Of a stretch of DNA of 64,000 bases, positions 1 to 53,628 are shown piece by piece. The position numbers and the translations under genes are program-made. The DNA lies in contig CAYHFD010000002.1 in assembly GCA_964355855.1 (NCBI GenBank), positions 419 to 64,418 of the forward strand. The letters are read 5' to 3'. The notes under the pieces were generated by a model. That model did not search any database and was not told the origin of the DNA. It saw nothing but the letters and a program-made list of their open reading frames with translations. How positions within the stretch are numbered: position 1 is the first letter of the stretch; each line of letters starts with the position of its first letter. The DNA comes from an uncultured Candidatus Saccharibacteria bacterium (GTDB lineage: Bacteria > Patescibacteriota > Minisyncoccia > Phycocordibacterales > XYD1-FULL-46-19).

Positions 1-317
1 GGCGAGGATGATGAAGTTGAGGTTGTGTTCTTCAAACCTGACCTCTCGAACCGCAATGGTTTCATCTCCGATGACGACCTCGAAAAGGAGTTTGAGTTGC
101 GTGGTCTCAAGCCGGTCGATCCGTATTCTTTGGCGGCCGTCAACGAAGCCGATCCGGCTTTCGCGGACGATAAGCCACACGGCACCCACTGGAAGGACGA
201 GAATGGCCAGTGGTGTTGCGCCACGTTCCGCCGGTGGAGCGGCGGGCGGCACGTGAGTGTCGACCGCTACGCCTTGTCTGGGGCGGCAATTGGTGGTTCG
301 CTGGCCGGCGCAAGTAG
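1..317 (+). CDS. DGR target protein paralog A (5'-partial; C-terminal VR1). The frame matching paralog B ends at TAG 315-317; relative to TR and VR2 there is a 1-nt deletion that shifts the listed ORF on to 534.
   Basis: From nt 1 the translation GEDDEVEVVFF...DPYSLAAVNEADPAFADDKPHGTHWKDENGQWCCATFRRWSGGR is collinear with and ~70% identical to the downstream gene 681-1310. It shares the 3' block ggttcgctggccggcgcaagtag with VR2 and TR, but in a +1 frame relative to the upstream part. Confidence 0.6.
212..313 (+). repeat. DGR variable repeat VR1
   Basis: Aligns to TR (1654-1756). About 14 differences fall at TR adenines, with one silent C/T difference and a 1-nt indel near the 3' end. The 3' IMH-like block is identical to TR and VR2. 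Confidence 0.75.
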
Positions 318-422
318 ATTTTGGGCTTTGGCCGCTGGGTCCTTTTTGGACCCTTTGGCCTTAGCCTTTGGGCCCCTGCATTTCGGTGCGGGGGCCTTTT
401 TCTTTTGGTTGAAAAAAGCACA

Positions 423-467
423 AGCACTCTTTCTCCACGAGGTTGAACCTCGTGGAGAAAGAGTGCT
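423..467. repeat. Perfect 45-nt palindrome (20-bp arms, loop TTGAA) ~105 nt downstream of VR1. The core CACGAGGTTGAACCTCGTG recurs at 16774-16792.
   Basis: agcactctttctccacgagg ttgaa cctcgtggagaaagagtgct, checked base by base; the second occurrence lies just after the yafQ-like stop. Confidence 0.8.
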
Positions 468-559
468 ACAAATAAACCAGTTCGCCCATCGATCCCTGTG
501 GCCAAGCTGGCCGGGTATTCTCGCCACTCAATAAGGTTATCTTGAGGCAGTTACAAAAT

Positions 560-588
560 TTGACAAAATAGCCGACAGGGTGTATAAT
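560..588 (+). promoter_or_regulatory. Sigma70-like promoter TTGACA-17-TATAAT with RBS AAGGAGG (666-672) for target gene B
   Basis: ttgaca at 560-565, 17-nt spacer, tataat at 583-588, then aaggagg 8 nt before ATG 681. Confidence 0.55.
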
Positions 589-680
589 TAAAATAGATTG
601 AAAATTGGCCTAAGTAAGGTAGTGATCCATTTTTGCTGTCCTAACTGAAGCCGCCATAACCAAGAAAGGAGGATGACGCC

Positions 681-1310
681 ATGGAAAAGACCATGACCCC
701 ATCCGCAGATTCCGCATCAGACACGAAGACGACGACAGCGGGCCAAATCACCAAAGCCGTCGCCAACTATCGGGCACTTCTGGAGAAGTACGCCGAAGAA
801 TTCCCTGCTGAGGCTGTGCAAACAGTTCTCGGCCAGTCCGAACTTGCCAGTGAGCAATTCGCAGTTTTGCGCCGGCGCATCGAAGTGGTCAGCAATATGA
901 TTGTTCGTCGCGTTAAGGTCAACCGCACCCGCAAGCCCCAAGAGGTTCTGGACGCCACCGGCCGGAAGCAGTACACCAACCGCGCGGTCGTGGACGGTAT
1001 GTCCCAAGGCGAAGGTGACGAAGCTGAAGTCGTTTTCTTCAATCTCGGCCGTTACGTGACCGATACCGAGTTGGAAAAAGAATACGAAATGCGCGGTCTT
1101 GTGCCCGCTGATCCGTATTCTTTGGCCGCCGTGAACGAAGCTGACCCGGCTTTTGCCGATGAAAAGCCGAACGGCACCCACTGGCAAGATTCCGACGGCC
1201 AGTGGTGCTGCGCCGCGTTCTACCGGTGGGACGGCGGGCGGTACGTGGGTGTCCGCCGCAACGTCAATGACTGGGACGACCATTGGTGGTTCGCTGGCCG
1301 GCGCAAGTAG
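681..1310 (+). CDS. DGR target protein paralog B (209 aa) with C-terminal variable repeat VR2
   Basis: Intact ORF with strong promoter and RBS. The C-terminus ...GTHWQDSDGQWCCAAFYRWDGGRYVGVRRNVNDWDDHWWFAGRRK overlaps VR2. Its N-terminal domain has no recognised function and no signal peptide. Confidence 0.8.
   Translation: MEKTMTPSADSASDTKTTTAGQITKAVANYRALLEKYAEEFPAEAVQTVLGQSELASEQFAVLRRRIEVVSNMIVRRVKVNRTRKPQEVLDATGRKQYTNRAVVDGMSQGEGDEAEVVFFNLGRYVTDTELEKEYEMRGLVPADPYSLAAVNEADPAFADEKPNGTHWQDSDGQWCCAAFYRWDGGRYVGVRRNVNDWDDHWWFAGRRK
1204..1306 (+). repeat. DGR variable repeat VR2
   Basis: 103-nt alignment to TR with 16 mismatches, every one at a TR adenine (A to G, T or C); the last 26 nt are identical to TR (IMH-like). 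Confidence 0.85.
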
Positions 1311-1653
1311 CTCTTAGCGCTAAGTCTCTCTGGACTTCGGTCCTTAGAAACTTAGCCCTTAGCCCTGTTTTGATTTGCCATCAAGGTAAATCGGAGCGGG
1401 GCTAAATTTTTGCATAAAATAATATATAATGCTCCCGGTAGTAGGTGAATAGCGATGAGGTTACGGCTTCTCGCTACCGAACCCAGTATCCATGCACCCC
1501 GAGTATCCACGGTCACGGCTGTGGGTAGAGTGGTGTATGCAGACACTTCAAAAAATGAAGCTACTTGGTATAGAGTTTTAAGGCATTGTGATGCCGGATT
1601 CGATACAGCCCCGAGAGTATTCGAGGGGTAGTGAAATAGACGAGACTCTATAC

Positions 1654-1756
1654 AATGCTACGCCACGTTCAACCGGTGGAACGACGAGCGGAACGTGAAT
1701 GTCAACCGCAACGACAATGACTGGAACGACAATTGGTGGTTCGCTGGCCGGCGCAA
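1654..1756 (+). repeat. DGR template repeat (TR), non-coding and adenine/AAC-rich
   Basis: This copy of the VR region has no upstream gene body. In the VR frame it reads NRWNDERNVNVNRNDNDWNDNWWFAGRR (AAC codons at the variable sites). The sequence diverges from the VRs right after gcgcaa (VR: gtag; TR: ctcac), i.e. an IMH/IMH*-type boundary. Confidence 0.85.
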
Positions 1757-1762
1757 CTCACT

Positions 1763-2092
1763 TCATTTTTCTCCCAATTTTGTGTTGGGAGAGTTTTGTT
1801 TTAATATCTGCCCACTCCAGCCGCCAAGCATTTTGCCGATTTCTTCAAGTGGCAAGGACAGGGCGATATATTTTTTATTGTCCAAAGACTTGGTTTCCCA
1901 CAAAATCATTAAAAGAACTTTGGCGGTATCCACTTTTCGAATGGCTAATCGGACCCACGGCTGTTTTTCGTCTTTGGCTAGAAAACTCGCGGCAGCAATG
2001 GCTTCGATTGCCTCAATAAACAGCGTGTCTATTTTCTGGCCAAGTGAGTAGCGGTGGGTTTTGGGTAAAATCTGGTGGTAGCTGGACCACAA
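1763..2092 (-). CDS. avd: Four-helix-bundle protein, Avd-like accessory variability determinant, antisense between TR and RT
   Basis: 109-aa ORF ...LPKTHRYSLGQKIDTLFIEAIEAIAAAS...LPLEEIGKMLGGW, resembling the four-helix-bundle family (TIGR02436-like) used as DGR Avd. It is on the opposite strand to TR and RT. Confidence 0.6.
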   Translation of the reverse strand: MWSSYHQILPKTHRYSLGQKIDTLFIEAIEAIAAASFLAKDEKQPWVRLAIRKVDTAKVLLMILWETKSLDNKKYIALSLPLEEIGKMLGGWSGQILKQNSPNTKLGEK

Positions 2093-2175
2093 AATATAGA
2101 CGGCTTTTAGTCGCTCAAGAAGCGGTAGGAGCTTTGGTTGTGAAAAGGTGCGGGGGGGGTACTATTCGAAGCGTT

Positions 2176-3216
2176 ATGCCCAAAATCCAGTTTACTCATA
2201 GTTATGAAGATATTATTTCACTTGATAATCTGCTTTCAGCGTGGCCAGAGTTTAGCACTGGCAAGCGGAAACGAAAAGATGTGCAGGAATTTGCGCGAAA
2301 CTTGATGACGAATATTATTTCTTTGCACTCTGATTTAGCTGCCAAAACCTACCAACATTCTGCCTATGAGGCTTTTAATATTGCCGATCCGAAGCCGCGG
2401 AACATTCACAAAGCCAGTGTCCGCGACCGCCTGTTGCACCATGCTTTATACCGGAAACTTTACCCATTCTTTGACCGCACCTTCATTGCTGATTCATTTT
2501 CCTGCCGGCGTCGGAAAGGAACACATAAGGCGGTGAAGAGGTTTGAGAGACTGGCGAGAAAGGCGAGTCAGAATAATACCAAGACGCTCTGGGTCTTGAA
2601 ATGCGATATTCGCAAGTTTTTCGCCTCGATTGAGCAGACAATATTGCTGGATATCGTAAATGGTTATATTCCCGACAAAAACATTGTTTGGTTGATTGGA
2701 AAAATTGTATTAAGCTTTCACTCGACCGCCCCAGGCAAAGGCCTACCTCTCGGCAACCTCACTTCCCAACTGTTAGTGAATATTTATATGAACGAATTTG
2801 ACCAGTTTGTGAAGCATAAACTCAAAGTGAAATATTATATCCGGTATGCCGATGATTTTGTTGTTATGTCTACCGATAAAAAGTGGCTAGAAGAAATATT
2901 GTTGGAGATTAGGGGATTTTTGGAAGAAAAACTTAAGCTGAAACTTCATCCAGACAAAGTGTTTATCAAAACTATCGCCTCGGGTGTGGATTTCTTGGGT
3001 TGGGTCCATTTTCCCGACCATCGCGTTTTGCGGACGATGACCAAAAGGCGGATGTTTAGAAATATTAAAGAGAAAGAGGGGAAGGTGGAGACTGTCCAGT
3101 CGTACTTGGGGTTGTTGCGACATGGCAATGGGTGGAAACTCCAGCGAGAGATTTTTGTTTCTTTGAAAAAAGAGTACTCCGGCCCGCGCGCCGTAGGCGC
3201 GGGGGATTTGCTATAA
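2176..3216 (+). CDS. DGR-type reverse transcriptase
   Basis: Contains YADDFVV (RT motif 5) and LPLGNLTSQLLVNIY, which matches the [ILV]GxxxSQ DGR signature rather than the group II QGxxxSP. The N-terminus has the FEAY.../KRKRKDV... pattern typical of DGR RTs. No group II domain V/VI RNA lies downstream. ATG 2176 was chosen inside the longer ORF 2044-3216. Confidence 0.85.
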   Translation: MPKIQFTHSYEDIISLDNLLSAWPEFSTGKRKRKDVQEFARNLMTNIISLHSDLAAKTYQHSAYEAFNIADPKPRNIHKASVRDRLLHHALYRKLYPFFDRTFIADSFSCRRRKGTHKAVKRFERLARKASQNNTKTLWVLKCDIRKFFASIEQTILLDIVNGYIPDKNIVWLIGKIVLSFHSTAPGKGLPLGNLTSQLLVNIYMNEFDQFVKHKLKVKYYIRYADDFVVMSTDKKWLEEILLEIRGFLEEKLKLKLHPDKVFIKTIASGVDFLGWVHFPDHRVLRTMTKRRMFRNIKEKEGKVETVQSYLGLLRHGNGWKLQREIFVSLKKEYSGPRAVGAGDLL

Positions 3217-8382: not shown

Positions 8383-8443
8383 ATTGATTAGTGTTTTAGT
8401 CTAATATCAGAAAATTGGGCCAGGGCTTTCAACCACTAAGGAG

Positions 8444-8641
8444 GTGAAAGTGGAGAATTATCAGATGGGTGAGGTTTTGATCCCACCAGATGAAGAAGGA
8501 TTTGTGGGGAGACTGATCAGGGATGGTTCGCCGGTTTATTTGCTTTCTGGTAACGGCGATCAGAAACCTGCCATGATGGCGGGGGAAGACACCATTAAAG
8601 GTCAGCAACCGTCGGAAATTTATTGCCAGCTGTATAGTTGA
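8444..8641 (+). CDS. Small hypothetical protein (start ambiguous: GTG 8444, GTG 8450 or ATG 8465)
   Basis: ORF preceded by aaggagg and followed by a strong terminator. Confidence 0.3.
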   Translation: MKVENYQMGEVLIPPDEEGFVGRLIRDGSPVYLLSGNGDQKPAMMAGEDTIKGQQPSEIYCQLYS

Positions 8642-8652
8642 AGCTGGCAGTA

Positions 8653-8693
8653 AGGGGTGGTGGGGCTTTTAAACCCCGCCACCCCTTTTCATT
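8653..8693 (+). terminator. Rho-independent terminator
   Basis: ggggtggtggggc ttttaaa ccccgccacccc followed by TTTT. Confidence 0.75.
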
Positions 8694-8704
8694 TTTATAT
8701 TTTT

Positions 8705-8900
8705 TAATCTAAGCCCAGAATTCCCCGTCAGTTTACTGCGGGGATGAATGGGCGAGGAAAGGGGGTCGGGGAAAACGGAGTTTTCCCCGTGGAGGAGAGC
8801 AGTGAAACGTTGAGAACCGAGGGGTTCTCAAAATAAATTTCTCCTCGCCTAATACCCCGTTAGCTTTTGCTATAGGGATAGGATGAGGAGGGTTTATTTA
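8705..8900 (+). repeat. Copy B of the ~200-bp structured repeat
   Basis: Collinear with copies A and C, with point differences (loop cgg to ctg; ttctcctcgcc arm). Confidence 0.8.
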
Positions 8901-8903
8901 ATT

Positions 8904-10070
8904 TTAGTTAGTCGTATTTTTTCTGACTGCTTCGGCCACCATTTGAGCTACTTTTTTGTCAAAAGGCGAAGGGATTATTTCTTCGGCGGTGGGGTTAGCT
9001 ACACAATCGGCAATGGCCTGCGCCGCGGCAATTTTCATTTCCTCGGTTACTTTTTTAGCACCACTATCAAACAATCCGCGAAAAATTCCCGGAAAAGCGA
9101 GGACATTGTTGACTTGATTGGGAAAATCGCTTCGGCCAGTGGCTACCACATAAGCCCCGGCCTCTTTGGCTATATCAGGCATAATTTCAGGGGTAGGGTT
9201 GGCCATCGCAAACACTATCGCCTTGGGGGCCATCGATTTCACCATATCAGCCGTGACGGTGTTTGGCCCGGAAACACCAATCAAAATATCGGCTTTTTTT
9301 ATAACTTCGGCTAGATTAGTGGGACAGTTGGTGGCGCAAGTGGTGGTCGTGCTTGGAAAATCTTTAATTATTGCCAATTTAGCTTCGTTTAAATCGGTTC
9401 GATGATTACAAACTAAACCTTTAGAGTCGACCAAAGCATAATTTTTCAGGCCAGCCCGGTAGAGAAGTTTAGTAATGGCGATACCGGCCGCGCCAGCGCC
9501 GGCAATAACTGCTCGCACCTCACTAATATTTTTTTCTACCACTTTCAAAGCATTGGTCAAAGCCGCTAGTACGACAATGGCTGTTCCATGCTGGTCGTCG
9601 TGAAAAACGGGAATGGGTAAGATTTGTTTCAGCCGTTCCTCGATTTCAAAACAACGCGGGGCCGAAATGTCTTCCAAATTTATTCCACCAAAGGATGGGG
9701 CAATAGCGGTAATAGCCTTAATAATTTCTTCGGTGTCTTGAGTGGCCAGGCATATTGGCACGGCATCGACACCACCAAACTCTTTAAACAAAATGGCCTT
9801 GCCCTCCATCACGGGCATCGCGGCTTCGGGGCCAATATTGCCAAGTCCGAGTACGGCCGAGCCGTCGGTGATTATCGCCACCGTGTTACCGACATTGGTA
9901 TAGGTTGTCAGTTTGGTTTTGTCTTCAGCGATAGCGATGCAGACCGTGGCCACACCCGGGGTGTAGGCTAAACTCAAATCTTCTCGCGTATTGAGCGGAA
10001 CTTTTACTTTAGTTTCTAGTTTGCCACGATATTTTTTATGTAATTCAAGGGAAGTGTCGCCAATTTCCAT
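8904..10070 (-). CDS. NAD(P)-dependent malic enzyme (short form)
   Basis: Malic-enzyme fold with a Rossmann GAGAAG motif ([11 protein letters not shown]) and the ...[11 protein letters not shown]... motif. Confidence 0.8.
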
Positions 10071-10212
10071 AAGGGCAGTTTGATTAGTTGTTTAATAACT
10101 GTATTCTAACCCATCTCTTGACCAATCCGAAGGCCGAGTCCACTGGTTGACTTTTGGGGCAGATTTGGTAATATTAGTAGGTGCCCCGCGGGGCTTTTTT
10201 AATACCAAAAAT

Positions 10213-10392
10213 ATGTCATTCATTGATTATTTAAAATCAACCAAAGCCGAGCTAAGACATGTCAACTGGCCAACCAGACGGGAGGCGGTAGTTTTTACTC
10301 TGATTGTGATAGTAATATCAATTGTCGTTGGAGCTTATTTGGGCGTTTTGGATTTTGTTTTTACTTCGATTATTAAAACTTTCATCATTTAA
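10213..10392 (+). CDS. secE: Preprotein translocase subunit SecE
   Basis: ~60-aa single-TM protein, MSFIDYLKSTKAELRHVNWPTRRE..., immediately upstream of nusG. Confidence 0.7.
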   Translation: MSFIDYLKSTKAELRHVNWPTRREAVVFTLIVIVISIVVGAYLGVLDFVFTSIIKTFII

Positions 10393-10397
10393 TTTTT

Positions 10398-10943
10398 ATG
10401 GCTAAACAAGAGTTAGACCAAGGGCGAAATTGGTATGCCATCCATACTTATTCCGGTTATGAAAATGCGGTAGCTCGTAACTTGAAACAGCGCATCGAAT
10501 CTTTGGGTATGGAAAGCAAAATATTTAATGTCTTAGTACCGATCGAAAAAAAGGTCAAAATAAAAGGGGGCAAGCGGGTGACTGTCGAGGAAAAAATTTA
10601 CCCGGGTTATGTCTTGGTTGATATGGTAGTTACTGACGATTCTTGGTATGTGGTGCGCAATACCCCTCGCGTTACCGGGTTTATTGGTTCGGGAGTTATT
10701 CCGGTGCCTTTGGAAAAATCAGAAGTTGATGAGTTGTTTCGTCGCATGGGTGATGATTCGACCAAACACGCTATTGATTTAACAGTAGATGAGGCGGTAG
10801 TTGTCGTCGATGGGCCGTTTAAAGAATTTGAGGGTAAAGTCAGTGAAATTGACGAGGAGCGAGGCAAAGTTAAAGTCTTGGTGTCGATGTTTGGGCGGGA
10901 AACACCAGTCGAATTAGATTTTCTTCAGGTGAAGAAAATCTAA
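10398..10943 (+). CDS. nusG: Transcription antitermination factor NusG
   Basis: NGN plus KOW domains (WYAIHTYSGYENAV...; C-terminal ...GKVKVLVSMFGRETPVELDF) in the secE-nusG-rplK context. Confidence 0.85.
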   Translation: MAKQELDQGRNWYAIHTYSGYENAVARNLKQRIESLGMESKIFNVLVPIEKKVKIKGGKRVTVEEKIYPGYVLVDMVVTDDSWYVVRNTPRVTGFIGSGVIPVPLEKSEVDELFRRMGDDSTKHAIDLTVDEAVVVVDGPFKEFEGKVSEIDEERGKVKVLVSMFGRETPVELDFLQVKKI

Positions 10944-48685: not shown

Positions 48686-49524
48686 TTCGTATATAATAGG
48701 CGATGTCAGATATGTTAAATAAAATAAACCATAAAACCAGGCGTAAGAAGTAGCGTGTATTTAGACTGTGCTACATTCTGCCGCCCGGAGGGCGGTTTAT
48801 TTTTTCAGAAAGGCTGGAACATTGAAAATTGAATCCTGTCACGGTATCGACTTTTCCGCCTATAGGATAGGCGGAAGGGGTCTTTTCAAATATCGGAGGC
48901 AGAATAGGTAGAAACATTGTGTTTTGAAAGTAAAGTTAGATAGCAATCAAAAAAGAAAGTGGTTTTTAAATTTCCTAATAGGAAATTAAGAGTATATGGT
49001 GGATGCCTTGACACAAAATGGCGATGAAGGACGCGGCTTGGCGGCGATACGCTTCGGGGAGGTGCCTAGCAACCTTTGATCCGGAGATGTCCGAATGGGG
49101 AAACCCGATTGAGCAAAGCTCAATTACTCGTTTTTTTACGAGAGCTAACCCAGGGAAGTGAAACATCTCAGTACCTGGAGGAATAGAGACTAAATGAACT
49201 TCCTAGTTTGGAGGTAAGTAGCGCAAGCTCCGTGCTTCCAAACTATGAGGTTCTTAGCATTCCCTTAGTAGCGGCGAGCGAACAGGGAGAAGCCCAAACC
49301 CATAAGTTTACTTGTGGGGGTTGTAAGGCACGAACGTAGATTTCTAGGGAAGTCAAAAAATATTTTGTTAGCCGAAGCTGCTGGGAAGCAGCGCCACAGA
49401 AGGTAACGGCCCTGTAGGCGAAAATAAAATATCTTCCTTGTTCGTGTTCTTGAGTACCTCGAGGAACGACAGCCTTGAGGGAATCCGCCGGAACTAACCG
49501 GCAAGGCTAAATACATTTTGTGAT

Positions 49525-49561
<37 letters not shown>

Positions 49562-51247
49562 CAGCCCGATAAGGGCGTTGAAATAGACCTGAAACCATAT
49601 ACTTACAAGGAGTGGGAGCCGAGCACTACAGTGTGCATTATTTTGTGAGTTGAAAAATGATTTGACCGAGCCGTCGATGAAATTGCCGCCCAAGGCGTGG
49701 CGATTTGCAAAGGGTTGAGTCACCAGGGATGAACCATAACTGTCGACGTTATCTCATCCCATCATTTTTCAGTTCACAATTTAAATTGTGCATAGTGTAG
49801 TGCTCGGTGACCGCGTGCCTATTGAAGAATGAGCCAACGAGTTTATGCGTACTGCAGGCTAAGCCCTTCTGGGGTGGAGCCACAGGGAAACCAAGTGTGA
49901 ATAGCGCATTTGTAGTCCGCATAAGACCCGAAGCCAGGTGAGCTTGCCATGGGCAGGATGAACCCCACAGAAATGTGGGGGGAGGTCCGAACCGGTTAGC
50001 CGTGCAATACTATCGGATGACCTGTGGTAGGGAGTGAAAAGCTAATCGAACCTGGTAATAGCTGGTTCTCTCCGAAATATCTTTAGGGGTAGCGTCAGAT
50101 GTTCCTTCTGGGGGTAGAGCACTGGAAGAGTCGAACAGGGAGAAATCTCGTCGATTCTATCAAACTCCGAATACCAGAAACTAAAAGTCTGGCAGTTAGA
50201 CTCCGGGCGCTAAGGTCCGGTGGTCGAAAGGGAAACAGCCCTGATCTCAATCTAAGGTCCCTAAATTCATGCTAAGTGCACTTAAGGAGGTGAAATTTCT
50301 CCGACAATGAGGAGGTTGGCTTAGAAGCAGCCATCCTTTAAAGAAAGCGTAATAGCTCACTCATTCAGAGATCTTGCGCCGCAAATAATCGGGGCTAAGC
50401 ATGGTACCGAAGGTGAGGATGTCATCTATTTTCGAATAGGTGGCGTGGTAGGAGAGCGTTCCAATCCGCGGTGAAGCAGTGTCGTGAGGCACTGTGGAGC
50501 GTTTGGAAGTGAGAATGTTGGCACAAGTAACCGCAAGGCAGGTGAGATCCCTGCCCGCCGAAAGATCAAGGTTTCCTTGGCAATGGTGATCAGCCAAGGG
50601 TTAGTCGGGCCTAAGCCGATGGTGAAAACCGCAGGCGATGGACACACGGTTAATATTCCGTGACTTCTGTAATGTGCGATGGGGAGACGGAGTGCAGTAT
50701 GTCAAGCGTATTATTGGATTTATGTTCGGGCCGTTAGGAAGTACTCTAGGTAAATCCGGAGTACATTATTCCAAGCGGAGCGAAAACGCGGTGGTCTCCA
50801 CCGTGAATTTGACAAAGCGCGCTTCCAAGAAAAGCCTCTAAGCTTCAACATTATAGAAACCGTACCGCAAACCGACACAGGTGATCAGGTCGAGAAGACC
50901 AAGGCGAACGGGTGATTGCTCCTCAAGGAACTCGGCAAAAAAGCGGCCGTAAGTTTGCAATAAGGCCTTCCTAACCCCGCGCAAGCGGGACGGACGCAGC
51001 TAAAGAATCCCTGGCGACTGTTTATCAAAAACACAGCTCCCTGCGAACTCGTAAGAGTATGTATAGGGGGTGACACCTGACCAATGCCCGAAGGTCAAAT
51101 AAGGTGGGTGTGCGCATCACACTGCGTGTGATACTGATATATCGATATATCAAAATTTCGAAATATCAGCATCGTGCTTGGCGTGATGCGTATGCTTGCT
51201 CTATAAGCCCGGGTGAATGTCGGCGATAACTATAATCGTCCTAAGGT

Positions 51248-51509
51248 TCCGTGTTCGATTTTAAAATCGAACACGGAACGGATTGGGGCGATGTATAGCG
51301 AGTGTGATAAACAGAAGACAAAATATACCAATCAAAAGCTACCTCAGCGCGCGGTAACGCGTGCATGATCCACATGGCACGAAGAGACTATACGCCATGC
51401 TCCCTAAAACATTTGCTTTGCAAATGTTCGGGCGAACATTTTGTTTACAAAATGTTTTAGCCAGCAAAAATTAGGGATGAAGATATAGTCCTTATGTGAG
51501 GAATATAAG
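51248..51509 (+). other. Intron-like insertion 1 in the 23S (262 nt, no ORF) at E. coli position L1931 in helix 69
   Basis: Flanks reconstitute CCTAAGGT|AGCGAAATTCC. The 5' exon ends in U, the insert ends in G, and the insert has internal palindromes. Confidence 0.6.
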
Positions 51510-52110
51510 AGCGAAATTCCTTGTCTGGTAAGTTCAGACGTGCACGAATGGTGTAACGACTGGGGAACTGTCTCGAGGAGTAGCCCGGTGAAAATGCAAT
51601 GGGGGTGAAGATGCCCTCTACCTGCAGCTAGACGAAAAGACCCCAGGAGCTTTACTGCAGCTTGATATTGAGCTTACGTTTTTACTGCGTAGCATAGGTG
51701 GGAGACTTTGAAGCGTCGCTTTCGGGTGATGTGGAGTCAACAGTGAAATACCACTCTGTAAAAATGTATGTTCTAACCACGGTGTAAACCATCGTGAGAC
51801 AGTATCTGGTAGGTAGTTTTAGTGGGGCGCTATCCTCCTAAAAAGTAACGGAGGAGTCTATTAAGGTCCTCTAGGCGCGAATGGAAACCGTGCCGATAGT
51901 GTAATGGCATAAGAGGGCTTGACTGCAAGACGTACATGTCAAGCAGATGCGAAAGCAGAGCATAGTGAACCGACGGTCCGCCTTAGAAACGGCCGAAGAT
52001 CAACGGATAAAAGCTACCCTGGGGATAACAGGCTGGTACCGCCCAAGCGTCCATAGCGACGGCGGTGTTCGGCACCTCGATGTCGGCTCATCTTATCCTG
52101 GGGCTGGAGA

Positions 52111-52143
<33 letters not shown>

Positions 52144-52183
52144 AAGATACGCGAGCTGGGTTCAAACCGTACTGAGACTAATT

Positions 52184-52743
52184 TTAAAAAATTGGTAGAA
52201 GTGCAGTTTGAATCCCTTCGAGTTTTTCGTTTATGAAATTAAGTATAGGAACCCCGCCGGCGCGTAAAGCTATGGCGGGTGAGACAACCATAATCACGGC
52301 GGCGTAATGTAGCAATATATTACGAAATGCTGACTTATATCGGTGAAACCCTATTTGACGCGGAAATATGCGGAACTAACGCAGACAAATGCGGAAAAGG
52401 GCAATACCGAGGGAAATCGTGAACTTTATTGAGGAAATTGATCTTTTTTTTGGGGTAGTGTAGTGGGCACATTTCTGGGTTTAATCCCAAGTAAGCTAAT
52501 GACAATCGGGCCTAAAATAGTTTAGATCTTTCAAGGTCTAAGCCGTACGGAAACCGTCACGTTGGCAAGCGAAAAAGAGCGAGTTCAACTTTCGCACCCC
52601 TTATGTTTTTGAAGCAATCGAGATGATTGCTTCTTCAATAAAGTTCACGATACCCGTAGAGACTGAACGTTAGCCAACCGGGCACATGAGAGTACCGGTT
52701 GAAGATACAGTCCGATGCACTTAGTAATAAGTGAAAACATGCG
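52184..52743 (+). other. Intron-like insertion 2 in the 23S (560 nt, no ORF) in the peptidyl-transferase region, at the I-CreI/I-CeuI-type homing site (~E. coli 2593-2597)
   Basis: Flanks reconstitute ...CCGTAC T|GAGACAGGTTGGTCTCCTATC. The 5' exon ends in U and the insert ends in G. Confidence 0.6.
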
Positions 52744-53518: not shown

Positions 53519-53628
53519 GTTTTGGCGGTTTGACGCGGTGGTCACACCTCTTACCATTCCGAACAGAGAAGTTAAGCACCGTAGTGGCGATGGTACTTGC
53601 AAAGGGAGAGTAGCTAGCCGCCAGAACA
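53519..53628 (+). rRNA. rrf: 5S rRNA
   Basis: tttggcggtttgacgcggtggtcacacctcttaccattccgaacagagaagttaagcaccgtagtggcgatggtacttgcaaagggagagtagctagccgccag. Confidence 0.85.

Follow-up and report, generated by a model that had tools for sequence, protein, structure and literature searches.

The first 3,216 nt of a 64,000-nt stretch of contig CAYHFD010000002.1 (assembly GCA_964355855.1, positions 419 to 64,418, forward strand), from an uncultured Candidatus Saccharibacteria bacterium, carry a diversity-generating retroelement (DGR); the whole 64-kb stretch is called the window below. The element comprises two tandem target genes ending in variable repeats (VR1 and VR2), a template repeat (TR), an avd homolog on the reverse strand and a reverse transcriptase (RT) gene. 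We assign it with good confidence to the chromosomal DGRs of Patescibacteria, or candidate phyla radiation (CPR) bacteria, with the architecture target-target-TR-(avd)-RT, known as B3. A sequence-only reading of the same DNA had already called it a complete DGR. The identity was borne out by A-specific TR/VR pairs, a DGR-like RT, an Avd homolog and repeat ends resembling the initiation of mutagenic homing (IMH) sequence, with hairpins on the target side. All DGR components are present, but its completeness is doubtful on two counts: VR1 is frameshifted, and avd has no canonical start codon before its first helix unless a run of eight G gains a base.

Gene content and the TR/VR pairs

The genes, repeats and associated signals of the element are as follows.

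1-317, plus strand: 3' part of target gene 1, whose ATG lies 302 nt before the window start (L001:116)
212-313, plus strand: VR1
324-366, plus strand: hairpin after VR1, a target-side inverted repeat 3' of the IMH
370-397, plus strand: terminator-like site after the VR1 hairpin
560-588, plus strand: promoter ahead of target gene 2, a perfect sigma-70-type match (TTGACA-17-TATAAT) in a consensus scan
681-1310, plus strand: target gene 2 (209 aa), with an N-terminal helical region and a putative C-type-lectin-like C-terminal domain
1204-1306, plus strand: VR2
1319-1356, plus strand: hairpin 13 nt 3' of VR2
1360-1404, plus strand: terminator-like site after the VR2 hairpin
1654-1756, plus strand: TR, non-coding, 29 A in 103 nt
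1763-2125, minus strand: avd (accessory variability determinant) homolog, with its stop at 1763-1765 and homology to Avd profiles from about 2125
2152-2159, no strand: G8 run separating avd from the divergent RT gene, at a position kept in relatives with a length of 6-12
2176-3216, plus strand: DGR-type RT (346 aa) with LGNLTSQ and YADD motifs

We aligned the TR with each VR. The alignment with VR2 was gapless and its 16 mismatches all fell at TR adenines (hypergeometric P = 3e-11), just as the sequence-only reading had reported. The global alignment with VR1 required a gap: 18 of 19 substitutions were at TR adenines (P about 1e-11), the sole exception being C1658>T, and one nucleotide was missing from VR1 opposite the A-rich stretch at TR 1714-1717. 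The A bias thus held on realignment. The earlier statement that VR1 differs from the TR nearly always at A was right for the substitutions, but the frameshifting deletion had been missed. Read in the target frame, the TR gives QCYATFNRWNDERNVNVNRNDNDWNDNWWFAGRRNS, which contains the previously quoted NRNDNDWNDNWW. It holds seven AAC codons, and 26 of 27 adenines occupy codon positions 1 or 2. The claim that AAC codons sit at exactly the positions that vary was overstated, as GAC, GAG, TAC, ACG and AAT codons of the TR vary too. Mutagenesis of this TR could yield about 3e15 protein variants.

A 25-nt GC-rich block, ATTGGTGGTTCGCTGGCCGGCGCAA, is identical in VR1 (289-313), VR2 (1282-1306) and the TR (1732-1756); it had been put at about 26 nt. 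Directly after it the sequences part, as the sequence-only reading had described, with GTAG in both VRs and CTCA in the TR. The IMH-like ends are thus identical in the TR and both VRs, and inverted-repeat hairpins, found 11-13 nt after each VR and unlike the hairpin that follows the TR, stand on the target side only. No further VR or IMH copies were found in the 64-kb window, where the 25-nt block occurs only at 289, 1282 and 1732.

The same cassette was found in other genomes. A target-based scan with one genome per species gave 80 loci, nearly all in Patescibacteria metagenome-assembled genomes, with a few bins labelled otherwise. The order target, spacer of ~300-400 nt, A-biased TR of ~100 nt, reverse-strand avd and RT was present at 45 of them; in L006 (16/16), L025 (18/18) and L028 (20/20), for example, every TR/VR mismatch was at A. 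When genome and metagenome loci were taken together, avd was antisense to RT in 106 of 106. Its minus-strand location had been read correctly but is not unusual here: Wu et al. 2018 (PMC5758913) name the order TR-(avd)-RT architecture B3 and find it in 90% of CPR DGRs and hardly at all outside them. All of this layout is seen in the window: the order TR-(avd)-RT, a reverse-strand avd, a target upstream and a CPR genome. Roux et al. 2021 (PMC8144416) describe a Patescibacteria-restricted DGR clade 2, whose targets typically have no recognisable domain. From the taxonomy of the relatives and from the domain-less targets, we infer that the RT probably belongs to this clade. The features that had been singled out as unusual are thus the norm of the lineage. 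Two tandem targets, by comparison, occurred in 1 of about 45 cassettes of the genome set.

The RT matches Pfam RVT_1 and carries the YADD and LGNLTSQ motifs already noted from sequence. Its best solved relative is 8ub7_A (E 1.1e-44, full length), a 328-residue chain from a nine-entry cryo-EM series, deposited as 'Reverse transcriptase', a name not specific to the Bordetella DGR; from its length and its GIPIGSLTSQ and YMDD motifs, the chain is taken to be the Bordetella phage DGR RT (bRT). Group II intron and retron-type RTs matched only at about 1e-18, or 26 orders of magnitude more weakly. NCBIfam holds no DGR RT model; among its named models the RT came closest to that of group II intron RT/maturases (145 bits against a cut-off of 300), and the retron RT model scored 59.6 bits (cut-off 235). 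In PADLOC the best match was a generic RT model, many DRT models were listed with lower scores, and none of the specific defence-RT families matched the window RT.

Taken by themselves, the group II and DRT scores could be read in favour of another origin, in which the repeats are diverged paralog fragments and the RT is of group II intron, retron or defence-system type. We give this origin a negligible probability. The A bias of both VRs (P about 1e-11 each), an RT far closer to the DGR RT than to group II or retron RTs, the presence of an Avd gene and an arrangement conserved in dozens of genomes, each with its own A-biased TR/VR pair, all argue against it, and the Rfam search of the window gave no group II intron or retron RNA family. 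We consider it effectively refuted by the A-bias statistics and the conserved cassette.

The upstream paralog, previously described as partial, is so only within the window. A European Nucleotide Archive (ENA) contig from Hainich groundwater well H52, 100% identical, reaches 418 nt further upstream and shows the start of target 1, which is therefore a full-length paralog beginning before the window. Because of the 1-nt deletion in VR1 the frame shifts, and the open reading frame (ORF) at 25-534, which represents the frameshifted target 1, passes the nominal stop TAG (315-317) and remains open to 534. The conserved C-terminal WWFAGRRK is swapped for unrelated sequence by this frameshift. The identical deletion was present in three independent assemblies, the ENA contig and a Logan assembly among them; this contig occurs in ENA ERZ1292618 (well H52), ERR3654040 and SRR32696697. 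Between both target genes, at 423-467, lies a perfect inverted repeat of 22+22 nt (AGCACTCTTTCTCCACGAGGTT / AACCTCGTGGAGAAAGAGTGCT); it falls in the read-through part of the frameshifted ORF and scores as terminator-like on the minus strand.

The target family has more than 900 unnamed homologs in Paceibacterota-type CPR genomes. When these were aligned, the body of the protein proved conserved and the C-terminus followed the pattern WCxAxFxRWxGxRxVxVxRxxxDWxDxWWFAGLRK, in which the variable columns are those encoded by A-containing TR codons. An AlphaFold model of the target, built from the homolog alignment, was confident (pLDDT 89.8). The protein had no match in Pfam, NCBIfam or PADLOC, and the model had no significant match in a Foldseek search of the PDB; a putative C-type-lectin-like domain at the C-terminus would hold the VR. 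The short length, the missing signal peptide and the unrecognised domain remarked on in the sequence-only reading hold, but add little novelty, being usual for Patescibacteria DGRs of clade 2 (PMC8144416).

A structured leader and a duplex across the template repeat

The sequence around the TR contains the following RNA features, all on the plus strand.

1425-1430, plus strand: TATAAT-like box at the head of the conserved leader block, the putative -10 of the TR RNA
1437-1653, plus strand: conserved structured leader of the TR RNA, as defined by covariation
1437-1484, plus strand: P1, leader helix
1492-1538, plus strand: P2, leader helix
1553-1560, plus strand: long-range strand AAAUGAAG of the leader
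1561-1567, plus strand: nearly invariant linker CUACUUG of the leader
1568-1579 with 1642-1653, plus strand: P4, enclosing P5 and P6 and ending at the base before the TR
1582-1595, plus strand: P5, hairpin inside P4
1608-1629, plus strand: P6, hairpin inside P4
1761-1768, plus strand: long-range partner CUUCAUUU, pairing with leader 1553-1560
1769-1793, plus strand: covarying hairpin 3' of the TR
to about 1803, plus strand: U-rich tract GAGUUUUGUUUU after the 3' hairpin, terminator-like

An alignment of the interval from the target stop to avd in the 45 loci revealed strong conservation upstream of the TR and a conserved motif after it. The consensus structure of 44 sequences (alignment A2), obtained with RNAalifold, contained multiple helices. 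In this alignment 94.8% of cells were paired, against 42-49% in controls with slid partners, and compensatory changes occurred at 57 of 68 pairs; the observed values were reached in none of 500 shuffles. The fold of the window sequence on its own agreed with the consensus.

An independent set was collected from metagenome contigs with a pattern covering the TR only, TGGAAYGACAAYTGGTGGTTYGC. It retrieved 116 stretches, 66 of them new and complete. The same pattern had no match in viral contigs, and there is thus no sign of a phage origin. Nearly all of the 66 carried the leader motif ACUUGGU at a constant distance from the TR, and GAGUUUU after it. We then projected the structure of the first set on 58 of the new sequences plus the window (alignment A3): pairing was again high (94.2%, against 42-50% with slid partners), with compensatory changes at 58 of 68 pairs.

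The duplex formed by 1553-1560 and 1761-1768 begins 4 nt after the end of TR/VR homology. It is mostly invariant, and divergent members alter both strands together (UUUCAAGG with CCUUGAAA, UCCAAAGA with UCUUUGGA and AACAAGU with ACUUGUU), so that seven of its eight pairs showed compensatory changes in A3. In duplex energy the cognate partners surpassed shuffled ones in 5000/5000 permutations, and each of five very divergent leaders ranked its own partner first of 97. A purely local hairpin of AAAUGAAG with the adjacent CUUC was considered and rejected, as the change seen in L028 (GAAA/UUUC) and the divergent leaders favour the long-range duplex; the local hairpin may exist as an alternative conformation.

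Comparative analysis thus shows the TR to lie in a discrete predicted RNA of ~365 nt, consisting of a -10-like box, a multi-helix leader of ~215 nt, the TR, a hairpin and a U-tract. Eleven helices of this RNA are supported by covariation, and the leader that brackets the TR is shared by more than 100 related loci. Covariation likewise shows that a single leader strand pairs both just upstream of the TR, in P4, and 4 nt downstream of it, in the long-range duplex. With the gathering scores of Rfam applied, the 23S and 5S rRNA were the sole families recognised in the window, and the leaders of 14 relatives matched none. In the literature we found no description of such a leader or of covariation in DGR RNA, which is not proof that none exists, and we regard the structured, covarying leader upstream of the TR as a new feature.

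The leader might also act outside the RT machinery, as a 5' element with a regulatory or stabilising role or as a small RNA in its own right, with the working spacer placed downstream of the TR and antisense to avd, as in Bordetella phage. This would follow precedent: in the sole biochemically studied DGR all essential RNA but 20 nt lies 3' of the TR, and a stem-loop directly after the TR, read as an Avd-binding loop, is predicted for many DGRs including those of CPR bacteria (bioRxiv 10.1101/2023.10.23.563531). However, P4 ends at the base before the TR and the covarying duplex ties the leader to a site 4 nt after it. The post-TR hairpin (1769-1793) is followed by a conserved U-tract, and both together score as an intrinsic terminator in the consensus scan. 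The leader was also present beside nearly every TR retrieved by the TR-only pattern. We accordingly consider a downstream spacer unlikely, and favour a leader that belongs to the working TR RNA.

The avd gene, a polymorphic G-tract and activity

The Avd homolog matched NCBIfam DivGenRetAVD over positions 2-102 of the 104 in the profile (E 4.3e-13, 49.5 bits). It also matched Pfam bAvd (E 2.4e-8, 34.9 bits) and had no match by sequence in the PDB. Its frame begins at the stop 2162-2164, just upstream of the C8 run on the avd strand, and holds no ATG, GTG or TTG between this stop and TTG 2092, the first canonical in-frame start, although homology starts at about 2125. Apart from the G8 at 2152-2159, no run of G or C in the window reaches 8 nt. 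With G9 in place of G8, avd would become an ORF of 145 aa from ATG 2202-2200, in head-to-head overlap with the RT start.

We compared this tract in the window and in related loci L004-L199. Most relatives have a G-tract at the equivalent position, with lengths of 6-12, mainly 9-10; 14 loci lack a tract of five or more G, and short tandem repeats stand in its place in the subset of genome loci inspected. A canonical in-frame avd start was absent, as in the window, from 23 of the 84 distinct tract-bearing loci. Of 24 locus pairs sharing identical 70-nt flanks, seven had tracts of unequal length, and in two of the seven the difference was two bases. The tract could be a slippage-prone on/off switch of Avd, act on RT expression, accompany non-canonical initiation or reflect homopolymer errors of assembly; an effect on RT translation or on promoter spacing could also be considered. 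We regard the G-tract between avd and RT as a new feature of this DGR family.

At the 3' end of avd, the last ~13 codons and the stop are antisense to the long-range strand, the 3' hairpin and the U-tract of the TR RNA. The avd and TR transcripts would be convergent, with an overlap of about 40 nt, and the conserved Avd tail (KQNSP..GEK) is possibly shaped by RNA constraints.

Three observations could indicate a DGR that was active recently and is now off or decaying, with target 1 a frameshifted pseudogene and Avd not fully translatable: the VR1 deletion with read-through to 534, seen in all three assemblies; the lack of a canonical avd start between 2162-2164 and TTG 2092 where homology begins at about 2125; and a single variant of the target 2 sequence on record. 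However, the TR, the RT, VR2, the leader RNA and all its helices are intact. The 23 of 84 loci that share the avd state of the window are better explained by a reversible tract switch or a non-canonical start. A frameshift in a VR would be reversible through homing, and VR indels next to AAC codons, some of them frameshifting, occur in about 7% of DGRs according to Wu et al. 2018 (PMC5758913). We consider decay the less likely reading.

Activity of the family is indicated by its natural variants. Nine related target clusters, each of 90% identity or higher, held 148 variable columns, of which 111 fell within the last 39 residues, at sites coded by TR adenines. Because near-identical relatives differ almost only at VR codons, the family is active in nature; close relatives of this element are, judged from this pattern of variation, being diversified there.

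Several relatives were peculiar in other respects. Directly 3' of the B3 cassette, two loci (L031, at 8429-10603, and L041) carry a second DGR in canonical same-strand order, with a target of 280 aa ending in ..GGYVRCVR and DUF1566-like by eye, avd on the plus strand and an RT 37% identical to the window RT; two architectures thus stand side by side. About 28 loci within L004-L083 (L005, L007, L008, L027 and L037 among them) have a target-family gene with no TR, avd or RT within ~5 kb, and these genes may serve as distant targets for a DGR at another site of the genome, or belong to the family without being diversified. At L084 (6202-6589, minus strand) the TR is directly followed by coding sequence of the RT YADDF region, implying that avd and the 5' half of RT were deleted or that the locus is misassembled. 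Two proteins from the clusters of P0079 and P0097 were also unusual. The VR stretch of P0123 looks doubly frameshifted, which suggests recurrent VR indels in the target family. P0143 ends in TR-flank sequence (..VRNSLYFSAL); it was rejected as evidence for a cDNA start site, being a probable VR/TR assembly chimera.

Away from the element, the window has a GC content of about 42%. Its 23S rRNA gene (48976-52358) exceeds the bacterial model by about 450 nt, which implies insertions. The 5S rRNA gene (53521-53626) lies more than 1 kb downstream of the 23S; no 16S rRNA was found in the 64 kb. Unlinked rRNA genes with insertions are typical of CPR genomes. The insertion-bearing 23S, the 5S and the GC content of ~42% fit a CPR chromosome.

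Proposed mechanism and comparison with known systems

By the established DGR mechanism, the TR RNA would be reverse-transcribed by RT-Avd with random misincorporation opposite A, and the cDNA would replace VR1 or VR2. Homing would then recode about 15 residues, predicted to lie on the ligand-binding face of a small, putative C-type-lectin-like domain. The VR1 frameshift would be an indel of the type known next to AAC codons and would be erased by the next homing event. The clamping strand of the leader may act as both the primer strand and the stop-duplex strand of the Bordetella element do, but from upstream of the TR, and the leader hairpins may form a scaffold that binds RT and Avd. We infer, by analogy, a permuted DGR RNA whose leader would both prime and stop cDNA synthesis and would serve as the scaffold for protein binding. 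The whole construct, in which a permuted, terminator-ended TR RNA of ~365 nt gives leader-primed cDNA and a hypermutable G-tract gates the avd frame and DGR activity, is offered tentatively, as a set of proposals that may well not hold in every part.

Several points weigh against the reading of the element as a B3-type DGR with such an RNA. Target 1 is frameshifted in VR1, and avd has no canonical start codon before helix 1. The Avd scores lie under the curated cut-offs (49.5 against 80 bits for DivGenRetAVD and 34.9 against 40 for bAvd). Expression of RT would need a promoter of its own or read-through of the terminator-like site after the TR. The window target is a single sequence in a collection of 15 billion proteins, and current activity at the locus is unproven. 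Finally, the argument for a priming role of the RNA is one of analogy.

The cassette itself is ordinary, one further member of the catalogued CPR B3 class, and as such adds little; the comparative RNA data are more useful. Much of the known diversity of DGRs is found in CPR bacteria, and the recruitment, priming and stop functions of DGR RNA are known only from one phage element with a different gene order. The predicted RNA is a concrete construct with which to ask whether DGRs with a reverse-strand avd prime in cis as the phage element does, in a permuted arrangement. If the polymorphism of the G-tract is real, it would offer a simple means of turning targeted hypermutation on and off.

Contingency loci of Neisseria, Haemophilus and Campylobacter have phase-variable homopolymer tracts at the 5' ends of genes. 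The tract described here is similarly a G/C run of 8-11 nt at the 5' end of a gene, varies in length among sequences that are identical in all else, and determines the frame in which the gene stands to an ATG upstream. In contrast to those loci, the lengths here could be assembly errors and the role of the tract in switching is putative.

With CPR DGRs, as Wu et al. 2018 (PMC5758913) and Roux et al. 2021 (PMC8144416) present them, the element shares the gene order, the reverse-strand avd, a chromosomal location in an aquatic CPR genome and short domain-less targets. It also shares the A-to-N mismatches with an occasional non-A change, the indel next to an AAC codon and an IMH identical to IMH*, an identity that the former paper reports for some DGRs. 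It differs in its two tandem targets, rare in the family, and in the leader, the TR-bridging duplex and the avd/RT G-tract, which the excerpted parts of both papers do not describe.

Rfam RT-7 (RF03028) and RT-10 are RNA motifs found beside bacterial RT genes, RT-10 being the Bordetella phage spacer (Weinberg et al. 2017, PMC5737381). A likeness to RT-7, the only signal that Rfam gave for the leader at lower scores, is confined to the first hairpin of that motif, which the leader hairpin at 1497-1550 matches with 25.3 bits (E 4e-4) and 143 model positions skipped. This score is far below the gathering score of 116.8, and six divergent relatives gave no RT-7 match, which sets the leader apart from that family. 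The likeness to retron msr-msd RNA concerns topology only: a structured RNA lies upstream of the template and a flanking duplex brings the priming region to the template 3' end. In contrast to retrons, the element has an RT from the DGR clade and a product that should home into a target gene, and it shows neither an effector gene nor a match to a retron RNA family.

The closest mechanistic comparison is with the Bordetella phage BPP-1 DGR (mtd-avd-TR-brt). The essential part of its RNA consists of 20 nt of avd, the TR and a 140-nt downstream spacer (bioRxiv 10.1101/2023.10.23.563531). Spacer bases 53-56 pair with the TR 3' end, A56 primes the cDNA and, after a two-base linker, bases 59-70 pair just upstream of the TR, where synthesis stops; an Avd-binding stem-loop directly follows the TR (same source). 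The survey of other DGRs by Handa et al., CPR elements included, took in no more than 40 nt on the 5' side of the TR and 100 nt on its 3' side (bioRxiv 10.1101/2023.10.23.563531). Both elements have RTs homologous over their full length (E 1e-44), an Avd, a pattern of mutagenesis at template adenines and a stem-loop just after the TR; the variable domain that ends the target is C-type-lectin-like in BPP-1 and putatively so here. The present element differs from BPP-1 in that avd lies on the opposite strand, the location is chromosomal in a CPR bacterium rather than phage, and the target is a protein of 209 aa rather than a tail fibre. The RNA differs likewise: the clamping strand and four further helices stand upstream of the TR and not in a downstream spacer, and 3' of the TR there are only a hairpin and a U-tract, antisense to the avd 3' end. 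In both, nevertheless, one strand pairs beside the two TR ends, through Sp53-56, a 2-nt linker and Sp59-70 in BPP-1, and, as predicted here, through 1553-1560, a 7-nt linker and 1568-1579.

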